Of a stretch of 46,987 nt of DNA, positions 4,490-46,987 are shown piece after piece. Made by a program: the position numbers and the translations under genes. Below the pieces are notes generated by a model. It was not told the origin of the DNA. It made no database searches and worked only from the letters and a program-made list of their open reading frames with translations. Position 1 is the stretch's first letter, and every line of letters begins with the position of its first letter. The DNA comes from a virus (lineage: Duplodnaviria; Heunggongvirae; Uroviricota; Caudoviricetes), in the IMG/VR virus record IMGVR_UViG_2526164667_000034. The stretch is one strand, 5' to 3'.

Positions 4490-4580
4490 TAGACTGGCCC
4501 CCTGAATCTCCAGACAACCAGTATCACTTATTTAAGTGATAGTCTTAATACTAGTTTTTAGACTAGTCATTGGAGAGCAG

Positions 4581-4946
4581 ATGATTGATGTCTTAGGACC
4601 GGAGAAACGCAGACGGCGTACCACACAGGAAAAGATCGCAATTGTTCAGCAGAGCTTTGAACCAGGGATGACGGTCTCCCTCGTTGCCCGGCAACATGGT
4701 GTAGCAGCCAGCCAGTTATTTCTCTGGCGTAAGCAATACCAGGAAGGAAGTCTTACTGCTGTCGCCGCCGGAGAACAGGTTGTTCCTGCCTCTGAACTTG
4801 CTGCCGCCATGAAGCAGATTAAAGAACTCCAGCGCCTGCTCGGCAAGAAAACGATGGAAAATGAACTCCTCAAAGAAGCCGTTGAATATGGACGGGCAAA
4901 AAAGTGGATAGCGCACGCGCCCTTATTGCCCGGGGATGGGGAGTAA
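4581..4946 (+). CDS. insC: IS2 transposase OrfA (InsC)
   Basis: Track ORF 4536..4946; true start taken at [18 protein letters not shown]... (121 aa), recognised as IS2 InsC. Confidence 0.85.
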
Positions 4947-5809
4947 GCTTAGTCAGCCGTTGTCTCCGGGTGTCGCGTGCGCAGTTGCACGTCATTCTCA
5001 GACGAACCGATGACTGGATGGATGGCCGCCGCAGTCGTCACACTGATGATACGGATGTGCTTCTCCGTATACACCATGTTATCGGAGAGCTGCCCACGTA
5101 TGGTTATCGTCGGGTATGGGCGCTGCTTCGCAGACAGGCAGAACTTGATGGTATGCCTGCGATCAATGCCAAACGTGTTTACCGGATCATGCGCCAGAAT
5201 GCGCTGTTGCTTGAGCGAAAACCTGCTGTACCGCCATCGAAACGGGCACATACAGGCAGAGTGGCTGTGAAAGAAAGTAATCAGCGATGGTGCTCTGACG
5301 GGTTCGAGTTCCGCTGTGATAACGGAGAAAAACTGCGAGTCACGTTCGCGCTGGACTGCTGTGACCGTGAGGCACTGCACTGGGCGGTCACTACGGGCGG
5401 CTTCAACAGTGAAACAGTACAGGACGTCATGCTGGGAGCGGTGGAACGCCGCTTCGGCAACGAGCTTCCGGCGTCTCCAGTAGAGTGGCTGACGGATAAT
5501 GGTTCATGCTACCGGGCTAATGAAACACGGCAGTTTGCCCGGATGTTGGGGCTTGAACCGAAGAGCACGGCGGTGCGGAGTCCGGAGAGTAACGGCATAG
5601 CAGAGAGCTTCGTGAAAACGATAAAGCGTGACTACATCAGTGTCATGCCCAAACCAGACGGGTTAACGGCAGCAAAGAACCTTGCAGAGGCGTTCGAGCA
5701 TTATAACGAATGGCATCCGCATAGTGCACTGGGTTATCGCTCGCCACGGGAATATCTACGGCAGCAAGCCAGTAATGGGTTAAGTGATAACAGGTGTCTG
5801 GAAATATAG
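4904..5809 (+). CDS. insD: IS2 transposase OrfB (InsD), DDE catalytic domain
   Basis: 301-aa ORF overlapping orfA in the -1 frame (frameshift fusion architecture of the IS3 family); recognised as IS2 InsD. Confidence 0.85.
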
Positions 5810-25027: not shown

Positions 25028-27459
<2,432 letters not shown>

Positions 27460-44450: not shown

Positions 44451-44750
44451 ATGGCCTGTTCAACATTCAACCCTTTAACGTTACAGAAATACCAGCCAGA
44501 CCCTGAAGATTTATGCTCACTGTGTGGCGGAAATCATGGTAAAGCTGCCATGATCGAATGTAAGGACAAAATCCACATATGCCTTAATTGCGTTGATGTC
44601 CTCGTTGATATCAAAAATGAAAGAGAAGATAAAAAGCGTAGCGAGGCTATTCGCGCCTTAGATTCATGGATGCGAGATGGGTATAGTGCTGCGCAAATTT
44701 ATGACTTAGCCATTTCAAAAGGCGAAATACCAGGTGTGCGAATCGAATAA
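44451..44750 (+). CDS. Hypothetical Cys-rich (zinc-binding-like) protein
   Basis: Track ORF 44439..44750; start at MACSTF with GGAG RBS. Cys pattern C..CGG...C...C..C. Confidence 0.5.
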   Translation: MACSTFNPLTLQKYQPDPEDLCSLCGGNHGKAAMIECKDKIHICLNCVDVLVDIKNEREDKKRSEAIRALDSWMRDGYSAAQIYDLAISKGEIPGVRIE

Positions 44751-44770
44751 GAAGCGCACTCAAGCATCTT

Positions 44771-44953
44771 TTGGGGAAATCACAAATGCACTTCCGAGTC
44801 ACAGGTGAATTGAATGGAGAACCATTCAACAGAGTTATCGAAGCAGAGGACATCAACGACTGCTATGACCACTGGATGATATGGGCGCAGATAGCACATG
44901 CAGACGTAACCAATATTCGAATTGAAGAACTGAAAGAACACCAAGCCGCCTGA
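44771..44953 (+). CDS. Small hypothetical protein
   Basis: 60-aa track ORF (possible internal start MHFRV) ending in a terminator hairpin. Confidence 0.35.
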   Translation: MGKSQMHFRVTGELNGEPFNRVIEAEDINDCYDHWMIWAQIAHADVTNIRIEELKEHQAA

Positions 44954-44968
44954 TGGCGGTTTTTTATT
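44945..44968 (+). terminator. Rho-independent terminator upstream of xis
   Basis: GCCGCC-TGATG-GCGGT hairpin followed by TTTTTTATT. Confidence 0.7.
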
Positions 44969-45010
44969 GCCTGATTTGCAGGTTCGATTCCCTATTCGGA
45001 GATAGCACTC

Positions 45011-45211
45011 ATGCAACACGAACTACAACCTGATTCACTGGTTGATTTGAAATTCATCATGGCTGATACTGGCTTTGGTAAAACCTTCATCTACGACCGG
45101 ATTAAGTCCGGCGACCTGCCTAAAGCCAAAGTTATCCACGGTCGAGCAAGATGGTTATATCGTGACCATTGTGAATTCAAAAATAAGCTCTTAAGCCGCG
45201 CTAATGGGTAA
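45011..45211 (+). CDS. xis: Excisionase / AlpA-family DNA-binding protein
   Basis: 66-aa ORF; ...LKFIMADTGFGKTFIYDRIKSGDLPKAKVIHGRARW... is a typical AlpA/Xis winged-helix motif. Last phage gene before attR. Confidence 0.75.
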   Translation: MQHELQPDSLVDLKFIMADTGFGKTFIYDRIKSGDLPKAKVIHGRARWLYRDHCEFKNKLLSRANG

Positions 45212-45284
45212 AATAGCGGGTAAAATATTTCTCACATCTAAAAAATACCATTCTAATCAATCCCCTGCCACTCTAAGTAGATGT

Positions 45285-45299
45285 CTGCAGGGGACACCA
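45285..45299 (+). other. attR core: 15-bp copy of the tRNA-Arg (argW) 3' end
   Basis: CTGCAGGGGACACCA equals the 3' acceptor/T-arm end of argW as recalled. Upstream sequence diverges from the tRNA, so this is the partial copy. Exact core extent not determinable from one junction. Confidence 0.6.
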
Positions 45300-45739
45300 G
45301 ATACCCTTCAAACGAAATCTACCTTCACCCCGTAAAAGATAGGTTTGGCAGCACACTTGCCTTATATCTACTCATTTTTACTGCAACAGGTTGAAATCTC
45401 AGCACTGTCAGAAAGCGCTGATGACTAAACAGCCCTGGGCCGGGCGATGTAACCATCACACAGAATCCTGATAGCGAAATATGGCGTGACTCGATACTTC
45501 ACTCCGCAATGCATTCCTTGATGAATTCGCAGGACCGTGATACACGGGACAGGTCGCTGAATGACGACAATGTCCTGGAAATCAGCGAACCGCGCATCTG
45601 AAGTACATTTGAGCGACTGTACCAGAACATGAATGAGGCGTTTGGATTAGGTGATTATTAGCAGGGCTAAGCACTTTAGTATTATTATTTTCCGGTTGAG
45701 GGATAGGGAGATATCGACAACAACCGGAAAAGTTTACGT

Positions 45740-46987
45740 CTATATTGCTGAAGGTACAGGCGTTTCCATAACTATTTGCTCGCGTTTTTTACTCAGGAAG
45801 AAAATGCCAAATAGCAACATCAGGCAGACAATACCCGAAATTGCGAAGAAAACTGTCTGGTAGCCTGCGTGGTCAAAGAGTATCCCAGTCGGCGTTGAAA
45901 GCAGCACAATCCCAAGCGAACTGGCAATTTGAAAACCAATCAGAAAGATCGTCGACGACAGGCGCTTATCAAAATTTGCCACGCTGTATTTGAAGACGGA
46001 TATGACACAAAGTGGAACCTCAATAGCATGTAACAGCTTCACTAATGAAATAATCCAGGGGTTAACGAACAGCGCGCAGGAAAGGATACGCAACGCCATA
46101 ATCACAACACCGATAAGTAATGCATTTTTTGGCCCTACCCGATTCACAAAGAAAGGAATAATCGCCATGCATAGCGCTTCGAGTACCACCTGGAATGAGT
46201 TGAGATAACCATACAGGCGCGTTCCTACATCGTGTGATTCGAATAAACCTGCATAAAAGACAGGAAAAAGTTGTTGATCAAAAATGTTATAGAAAGACCA
46301 CGTCCCCACAATAAATATGACGAAAACCCAGAAGTTTCGATCCTTGAAAACTGCGATAAAATCCTCTTTTTTTACCCCTCCCGCATCCGCCGCTACGCAC
46401 TGGTGATCCTTATCTTTAAAACACATGTTGATCATCATAAATACAGCGCCAAATAGCGAGACCAACCAGAAGTTGATATGGGGACTGATACTAAAAAATA
46501 TGCCGGCAAAGAACGCGCCAATAGCATAGCCAAAAGATCCCCAGGCGCGCGCTGTTCCATATTCGAAATGAAAATTTCGCGCCATTTTTTCGGTGAAGCT
46601 GTCAAGCAAACCGCATCCCGCCAGATACCCCAGGCCAAAAAAGAGCGCCCCCAGAATTAGACCTACAGAAAAATTGCTTTGCAGTAACGGTTCATAAACG
46701 TAAATCATAAACGGTCCGGTCAAGACCAGGATGAAACTCATACACCAGATGAGCGGTTTCTTCAGACCGAGTTTATCCTGAACGATGCCGTAGAACATCA
46801 TAAATAGAATGCTGGTAAACTGGTTGACCGAATAAAGTGTACCTAATTCCGTCCCTGTCAACCCTAGATGTCCTTTCAGCCAAATAGCGTATAACGACCA
46901 CCACAGCGACCAGGAAATAAAAAAGAGAAATGAGTAACTGGATGCAAAACGATAGTACGCATTTCTGAATGGAATATTCAGTGCCAT
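45740..46987 (-). CDS. cscB: LacY-family oligosaccharide:H+ symporter, sucrose permease CscB-like (host gene)
   Basis: 415-aa 12-TM ORF starting at the window edge. LacY-family motifs (GLKKPLIW..., FEYGTARAWGSFGYA). Recalled as CscB of the csc regulon, which maps next to argW; not verified. Confidence 0.75.
   Translation of the reverse strand: MALNIPFRNAYYRFASSYSFLFFISWSLWWSLYAIWLKGHLGLTGTELGTLYSVNQFTSILFMMFYGIVQDKLGLKKPLIWCMSFILVLTGPFMIYVYEPLLQSNFSVGLILGALFFGLGYLAGCGLLDSFTEKMARNFHFEYGTARAWGSFGYAIGAFFAGIFFSISPHINFWLVSLFGAVFMMINMCFKDKDHQCVAADAGGVKKEDFIAVFKDRNFWVFVIFIVGTWSFYNIFDQQLFPVFYAGLFESHDVGTRLYGYLNSFQVVLEALCMAIIPFFVNRVGPKNALLIGVVIMALRILSCALFVNPWIISLVKLLHAIEVPLCVISVFKYSVANFDKRLSSTIFLIGFQIASSLGIVLLSTPTGILFDHAGYQTVFFAISGIVCLMLLFGIFFLSKKREQIVMETPVPSAI

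Follow-up and report, generated by a model that had tools for sequence, protein, structure and literature searches.

KplE1 (CPS-53) of Escherichia coli K-12, HK620, Sf6 and CUS-3 have a recombination module in common (PMC2951348). In KplE1, the integrase IntS binds arm-type and core-type sites, IHF bends the right attachment site (attR), and TorI, the recombination directionality factor (RDF, or excisionase), occupies five sites on the left attachment site (attL) and directs excision (PMC2951348, PMC3509656). The paradigm is shared with attR of lambda (POB'): a heterobivalent tyrosine integrase, arm-type and core-type sites, bending by IHF and an RDF that sets the direction. KplE1 differs from lambda in that its RDF sites lie on attL and not on attR, its int and xis are expressed from separate transcripts at opposite prophage ends, and it targets the 3' end of a tRNA gene (PMC2951348, PMC3509656). 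The KplE1 core comprises 16 nucleotides (nt) (PMC2951348), and a 135-bp KplE1 attR fragment served as the substrate for excision in vitro (PMC3509656). A segment of comparable make-up is described here, from a 46,987-nt stretch of viral DNA (Caudoviricetes; IMG/VR record IMGVR_UViG_2526164667_000034), the whole of which is called the window. Positions 45188 to 45299, together with a few tens of bp of flank, are almost certainly the attR of a P22-like prophage that entered the tRNA gene argW at its 3' end by means of an IntS of the KplE1/HK620/Sf6 type.

The locus has in common with KplE1 the argW 3'-end target, the core, a TorI protein of 100% identity, the position of torI beside attR and that of intS at the far end. 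The phage arm of the site (P arm) is near-identical to that of another copy (L005), which has a K-12-type flank. However, the KplE1 remnant measures 10.2 kb, duplicates 16 nt and has a right flank of the K-12 type (..ACCATCCTTGTG..), whereas the prophage described here is P22-like, spans ~45 kb, borders on a csc flank and duplicates 15 nt. The Lederbergvirus phages HK620 and Sf6 offer the free form of the site (attP), in which torI, P arm, core, P' arm and intS are contiguous in both; identity is ~97%, and the annotated core and repeats coincide. These are free phage genomes; the present prophage has the site divided between attL and attR, and its virion genes are interrupted by insertion sequences (IS) of the IS2, IS3-family and IS21-family kinds. 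Kapi1 has a matching att sequence in argW, int and xis at opposite ends, and neighbours from the dsd/csc region (PMC8787464). Its duplication is 17 bp long, AATGGTGTCCCCTGCAG, versus 15 nt here, the exact length depending on the flank. The finding itself is already published, as the KplE1 core and module, as the Kapi1 att site and as the csc placement, and the sole local difference is the 15-nt repeat.

The core of the right attachment site

The core, at 45285-45299 (+), is the 15-mer CTGCAGGGGACACCA. It has no other match across the window, even when two mismatches are allowed, against a chance expectation of 0.06. The 15-mer equals nt 61-75 of argW, the final 15 nt of tRNA-Arg(CCU), in the reference used here (NZ_CP074756.1; anticodon CCT, RefSeq annotation and ARAGORN call, locus 2765-2839). 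It also coincides with the attP core of HK620 and the core of KplE1 and is the strand-exchange site of attR. An earlier sequence-only reading had named the 15-mer as the argW 3' end, and the comparison bears this out. To its left, attR reads AGATGT where the tRNA has CGATTC, so that the copy is partial, again as had been proposed. The same reading called it the "phage-side" copy, a term that is too loose, the attR core being a hybrid of phage and bacterium with phage DNA as its left arm and bacterial DNA as its right arm.

The two prophage ends differ on either side of the repeat. While attR reads ..AGATGT CTGCAGGGGACACCA GATACC.., attL reads ..GATTC CTGCAGGGGACACCA TTTATC.., the latter in genomes that are 100% identical to both ends of the window. 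The argW 3'-end core CTGCAGGGGACACCA(T), which marks the KplE1/HK620/Sf6 module, is thus duplicated at both ends of the prophage. The exact direct repeat is 15 nt long here versus the published 16 nt because the csc-side flank opens with a G instead of a T.

The extent of the site can be drawn from the in vitro work on KplE1. Primer attR-IHF2 (PMC3509656, Ansaldi's group) maps to 45188-45207 with one mismatch. By this primer map and by the constant distance between torI and the core, 45188-45299 (+) is the P arm plus core, that is, the phage-derived part of the 135-bp excision substrate. Since the primer of that substrate maps to 45188-45207, the functional site should run from ~45188 to some 20 bp past 45299. 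For annotation, the right boundary of the prophage is set at 45299, and argW stays intact.

It could be argued that the 15-mer plays no part in integration, being either a fortuitous match or a tRNA pseudogene in decay. ARAGORN finds no tRNA gene in the window, hence no complete cloverleaf, and an Rfam scan of 44700-45760 by E-value returns no tRNA match; near attR, argW is represented by nt 61-75 and, apart from them, nt 46-61. Short matches do arise by chance: GCTAATTGCAGGTT, equal to argW nt 41-54, lies at 9757-9770 (+) within the coding region of an ejection-protein gene, and as matches of at least 14 nt occur in 4 of 100 shuffled sequences, this third argW-like piece was judged fortuitous and set aside. 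However, the core 15-mer is exact, unique and repeated at the other end of the prophage as the end of a real tRNA. Moreover, the junction resolves exactly into an attP and a bacterial site (attB) that both occur naturally (see below). The chance reading is refuted by this resolution and deserves practically no credence.

IntS and TorI

The genes at the two ends of the prophage identify the module. At the attL end, intS (1-1158, +) encodes a tyrosine integrase with matches to Pfam Arm-DNA-bind_3, Phage_int_M and Phage_integrase, and RefSeq names it "prophage integrase IntS". The arm-binding domain is N-terminal, and the gene adjoins attL in the same orientation as the tRNA gene, with argW 161 bp upstream. 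At the attR end, torI (45011-45211, +) lies immediately inside the attachment site, the place of an RDF gene. Its product is 100% identical over all 66 amino acids to PDB 1Z4H, the Tor inhibition protein, and RefSeq likewise annotates torI. The identity came via the PDB entry, as TorI has no Pfam or NCBIfam match at E <= 0.001. The sequence-only reading had overlooked that the locus is the published IntS-TorI module of KplE1, HK620 and Sf6, although TorI is 1Z4H and the HK620 record annotates the matching attP core.

The module has a distinct left border. A hairpin followed by a T run (44943-44966, +), found in a terminator scan and resembling an intrinsic terminator, marks the end of the preceding early-left gene. 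Phages differ to the left of this hairpin and are conserved from TTTTTATTGCCTG onward, where the integration module begins.

The core and torI might instead be part of an earlier remnant in tandem with the P22-like prophage, for example a cryptic prophage like KplE1, in which case the site would not be the P22-like prophage's own attR. argW is a hotspot with many remnants, and the torI-attR-cscB junction is present in far more complete E. coli genomes than is the left end of the prophage: at a query coverage of at least 80%, the counts are 2622 of 5426, or about half, and 105. Yet the 47-kb window contains a single copy of the core with two mismatches allowed, and the annotated equivalent locus contains no second integrase. 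Besides, the early-left genes run directly into torI, just as they do in HK620, Sf6 and Louie, where the attP is the phage's own. A tandem remnant is therefore highly improbable, and the site is best read as the attR of the P22-like prophage itself.

Loci with the TorI module were also seen on short contigs of metagenome-assembled genomes labelled Actinomycetes (L010; 5,057 bp) and Parachlamydiaceae (L027; 3,426 bp). Contamination from enterobacteria or mis-binning is the most likely reason for both.

attL, attB and attP in natural sequences

Several complete E. coli genomes, including NZ_CP074756.1 and NZ_CP074760.1, match both the right 2.1 kb and the left 2.6 kb of the window at 100%. The sequence-only reading had predicted that an intact argW would be found outside the window, just to the left of int. 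This is the case in two genomes with a 100% identical left 2.6 kb: an intact tRNA-Arg gene is flanked there by yfdC and intS, and 161 bp separate its end from the intS ATG, position 1 of the window. In the source genome, attL would accordingly be expected to read CTGCAGGGGACACCA followed by TTTATCAG, 161 bp before the intS ATG.

Recombination of attL with attR in silico gives two products, and both exist. The predicted attB, argW joined to the window from 45300 onward, is present as a single piece of 100% identity in many prophage-free csc-positive E. coli, and this query is covered to at least 80% in 1414 of the 5426 complete genomes. Strain 503025 has the empty site with the annotated order yfdC, tRNA-Arg, 440 bp and a major facilitator superfamily (MFS) transporter. 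The uninterrupted argW-440 bp-cscB arrangement also answers the earlier suggestion that the flank should align with csc-positive E. coli. The free phages Louie, HF4s, N7, Sf6, IME10, HK620 and HK633 carry the predicted attP, the window up to 45299 joined to the argW-intS arm, without interruption and at 96-97% identity. The HK620 record places its "attP core" on CTGCAGGGGACACCAT and its "attP" repeats on stretches that contain GGGTAAAA, and the Sf6 record marks an identical core.

Some points weigh against the assignment of the site as a working attR of this prophage. attL lies outside the window, and that of the source genome is deduced from genomes that are 100% identical at both ends but lack two of the window's IS insertions. 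The protein sites in the P arm are assigned from their sequences, and the recombination proficiency of this copy is presumed by analogy with KplE1.

Architecture of the P arm

The P arm was compared in 16 sequences from Escherichia, Enterobacter, Serratia, Citrobacter, Dryocola, Pantoea, Tatumella, Rouxiella, Edwardsiella and Arsenophonus. Within 45212-45299, the core stands at a fixed distance from the torI stop codon in at least 10 genera, and the 87-nt P arm shows no insertion or deletion, although much of its sequence diverges. Two direct repeats of GGGTAAAA (45206-45213 and 45218-45225, +) overlap the torI stop codon. They are invariant in all 16 sequences and coincide with the attP repeat of HK620, which makes them putative arm-type sites for IntS. 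Five copies of GGGTAAAA occur in the window versus 1.3 expected, and inverted copies are found in the attL arm.

Closer to the core lies AATCAATCCCCTG (45256-45268, +), which agrees in 12 of 13 positions with the IHF consensus WATCAANNNNTTR. KplE1 attR reportedly has a single functional IHF site, and AATCAATCCCCTG is, by its sequence, the candidate for it. Across genera, ATCAA is semi-conserved; the TTR position of the IHF-like site reads TTG in two Pantoea outgroups.

The P arm is otherwise conserved except for a hypervariable patch of 7 nt (45269-45275, +), which stands out by column entropy and separates the core from the left arm of the inverted repeat described below. Among 50 unique copies of the module from E. 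coli phages, the mean entropy of the patch is 0.55 bit. It amounts to 0.05-0.09 bit over torI, the upstream leader and the initial 57 nt of the P arm, and to 0.17 bit between the patch and the core end. The patch is thus 3- to 10-fold more variable than the rest of the module. A spacer free of constraint, or else a mutational hotspot, may account for this.

An inverted repeat complementary to the core

The sequence-only reading had noted that phage sequence just upstream could pair with the core. This holds, and the pairing is conserved: the left arm TCCCCTGC (45261-45268, +) is complementary to GCAGGGGA (45287-45294) within the core in all 8 positions by Watson-Crick rules, with a spacer of 18 nt. 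A register with a 17-nt spacer gave only 53% pairing and was discarded, the slide control returning the 18-nt register. At least 7 of the 8 pairs are kept in 13 of the 16 cross-genus sequences. Two compensatory changes are seen, CCCCTAC/GTAGGGG in Rouxiella and TCCCTGC/GCAGGGA in Edwardsiella; as two double changes are reached by 28 of 500 shuffles, the statistical support is modest. The repeat is absent from the three more distant copies (Arsenophonus and two from Pantoea), which keep the core and the arm repeats. As a single strand, the region has a predicted folding energy of -16.7 kcal/mol (z -2.8) for RNA and of -9.2 kcal/mol (z -3.0) for DNA.

The inverted repeat is genuine and under constraint, and a hairpin, in RNA or DNA, fits the data as well as two half-sites bound by one protein. 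On one view, TCCCCTGC and GCAGGGGA pair in the RNA, giving the torI transcript a 3'-terminal hairpin that acts as a stabiliser, an insulator or a mimic of a tRNA minihelix that ends in ACACCA. Under the other, they form a protein site in duplex DNA, with an IHF half-site and an extra core-type half-site for IntS. The stability of the predicted hairpin in both nucleic acids and its retention in 13 of the 16 copies, with the changes in Rouxiella and Edwardsiella, agree with the RNA view, as does a loop with TTCGAT, resembling a T loop, in other genera. However, the same covariation is expected if one protein whose specificity tracks the host tRNA binds both half-sites, and there are just two compensatory events, a number that shuffled sequences also reach. 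In addition, the left arm overlaps the IHF-consensus-like sequence, the three distant relatives without the repeat retain core and arm repeats, and Rfam gives no match. An RNA hairpin is possible but rather unlikely. The Rfam scan of 44700-45760 did list STnc130 (24 bits versus a gathering score of 55 bits), STnc420 and isrK below threshold; these were rejected, as they are apparently driven mainly by the terminator hairpin.

A second argW-like box upstream of torI

A further piece of argW was found by an exact-match scan on the far side of torI. The T-arm-like box TTGCAGGTTCGATTCC (44976-44991, +) equals argW nt 46-61. The box and the core (nt 61-75) between them make up the final 30 nt of argW; in the window they stand 293 bp apart, with torI and the P arm in the interval. 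In 100 shuffled sequences the longest argW match was 15 nt, reached once, versus 16 nt for TTGCAGGTTCGATTCC. Upstream of torI homologues, the 12-nt centre of the box, AGGTTCGATTYC, is kept in Enterobacter, Serratia, Citrobacter, Pantoea and Edwardsiella and cleanly absent from Dryocola, Tatumella and Rouxiella. The HK620 record labels the region of TTGCAGGTTCGATTCC as a "phage integration" promoter and cII site, and the box falls outside the 135-bp attR fragment used in vitro.

The split argW pieces and the co-evolving complement of the core might be functional elements of this attP family that have so far escaped description, but we regard this as rather improbable. In that case they could be extra "B-like" or core-type IntS sites that couple torI expression to integrase occupancy, or they could form an RNA like a tRNA minihelix that processes or insulates the torI transcript. 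Alternatively, the pieces would be evolutionary debris of a longer identity in an ancestral attP. Three possible origins were considered and set aside, as none of them simply yields the observed order: a tandem lysogen that later underwent deletion, an aberrant excision event, and an ancestral attP of greater length into which torI was inserted.

A model for integration and excision

On the favoured reading, the phage attP bears the final 15-16 nt of argW, and IntS exchanges strands within that stretch of identity. Integration leaves an intact argW at attL, beside intS, while attR keeps 15 nt of the tRNA end, placed between torI and the bacterial flank with the csc sucrose regulon. argW is intact before and after the event because the phage carries the last 15-16 nt of the tRNA. 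For excision, by analogy with KplE1, IntS would occupy the GGGTAAAA arm-type repeats (45206-45225) and the core, IHF would bend the P arm near 45256-45268, and TorI bound to attL would steer the reaction towards excision. The products would be a circle with the order torI-P-core-P'-intS and a restored argW-cscB junction. Occupancy at the level of single bases is, like the crossover point, a prediction.

Natural variation at attR gives hints about where strands may be exchanged. Early loss of identity with the tRNA end was seen in the attR copies L007, L010, L018, L034 and L092, which come from other genomes or viral contigs; some of them leave the identity after GGGGACA (L007) or ACAC (L034 and L092). 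Such early loss suggests integration at secondary sites or deletions at the junction. The divergence points suggest, as far as the alignments can tell, a crossover to the left of GGGGACA and ACAC. This placement would also fit an imperfect inverted repeat, GATGTC/GACACC, around the 7-bp TGCAGGG. Across genera, GATGTC|TGCAGGG|GACACC shows mixed covariation with the discriminator base.

The genes and sites for recombination look intact despite the IS breaks in virion genes. The element may therefore still excise in the manner of KplE1 and restore the argW-cscB junction, although the present excision ability of so IS-riddled a prophage is an extrapolation. The small conserved elements of the P arm might help to dissect the IntS intasome more finely and leave this picture as it is.

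The bacterial flank

The flank beyond the core belongs to the bacterium. Positions 45300-45739 (440 bp; no strand assigned) correspond to what lies, in strains free of the prophage, between argW and the cscB 3' end; in the empty-site genomes they are contiguous with argW at 100% identity. The next gene, cscB (45740-46987, -), encodes a sucrose:H+ symporter and is convergent with torI; the window stops at its start codon. It matches Pfam LacY_symp (2.6e-193) and TIGR00882 (1.7e-178), and RefSeq names it cscB or oligosaccharide MFS transporter, in line with the CscB-like permease recognised in the sequence-only reading. Beyond cscB, the best-matching genome has cscK, cscA, cscR, a remnant of dsdX and then dsdA. 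The LacY-family oligosaccharide:H+ symporter and the order cscB-cscK/cscA-cscR beside the dsd locus are those of the csc regulon, which sits between the argW variable region and dsdX (PMC3032704). The gene order and the published position both agree with the earlier placement in the argW/csc hotspot, and the element is thus located in the known argW-csc/dsd variable region.

The prophage body

The type of the prophage was read from the RefSeq annotation of a locus that differs from the window by two IS insertions and otherwise matches it at 99.97-100% identity. A P22-type capsid, portal, gp4/gp10/needle, ejection proteins and tailspike, together with a lambdoid early region, mark it as P22-like, that is, of the Lederbergvirus type. 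IS2 interrupts the tailspike gene (~4536-5809), an IS3-family element splits the portal gene (19587-20891), and an IS21-family element (istA/istB) occupies 25505-27457. With these three elements the prophage is therefore defective for virion production. The closest genome compared lacks the IS3-family and IS21-family insertions.

Between intS and the tailspike gene lies a gene of the acyltransferase family (1403-2545, -). This interval is the position that the O-antigen acetylase gene oac takes in Sf6, and the acyltransferase is likely a seroconversion gene.

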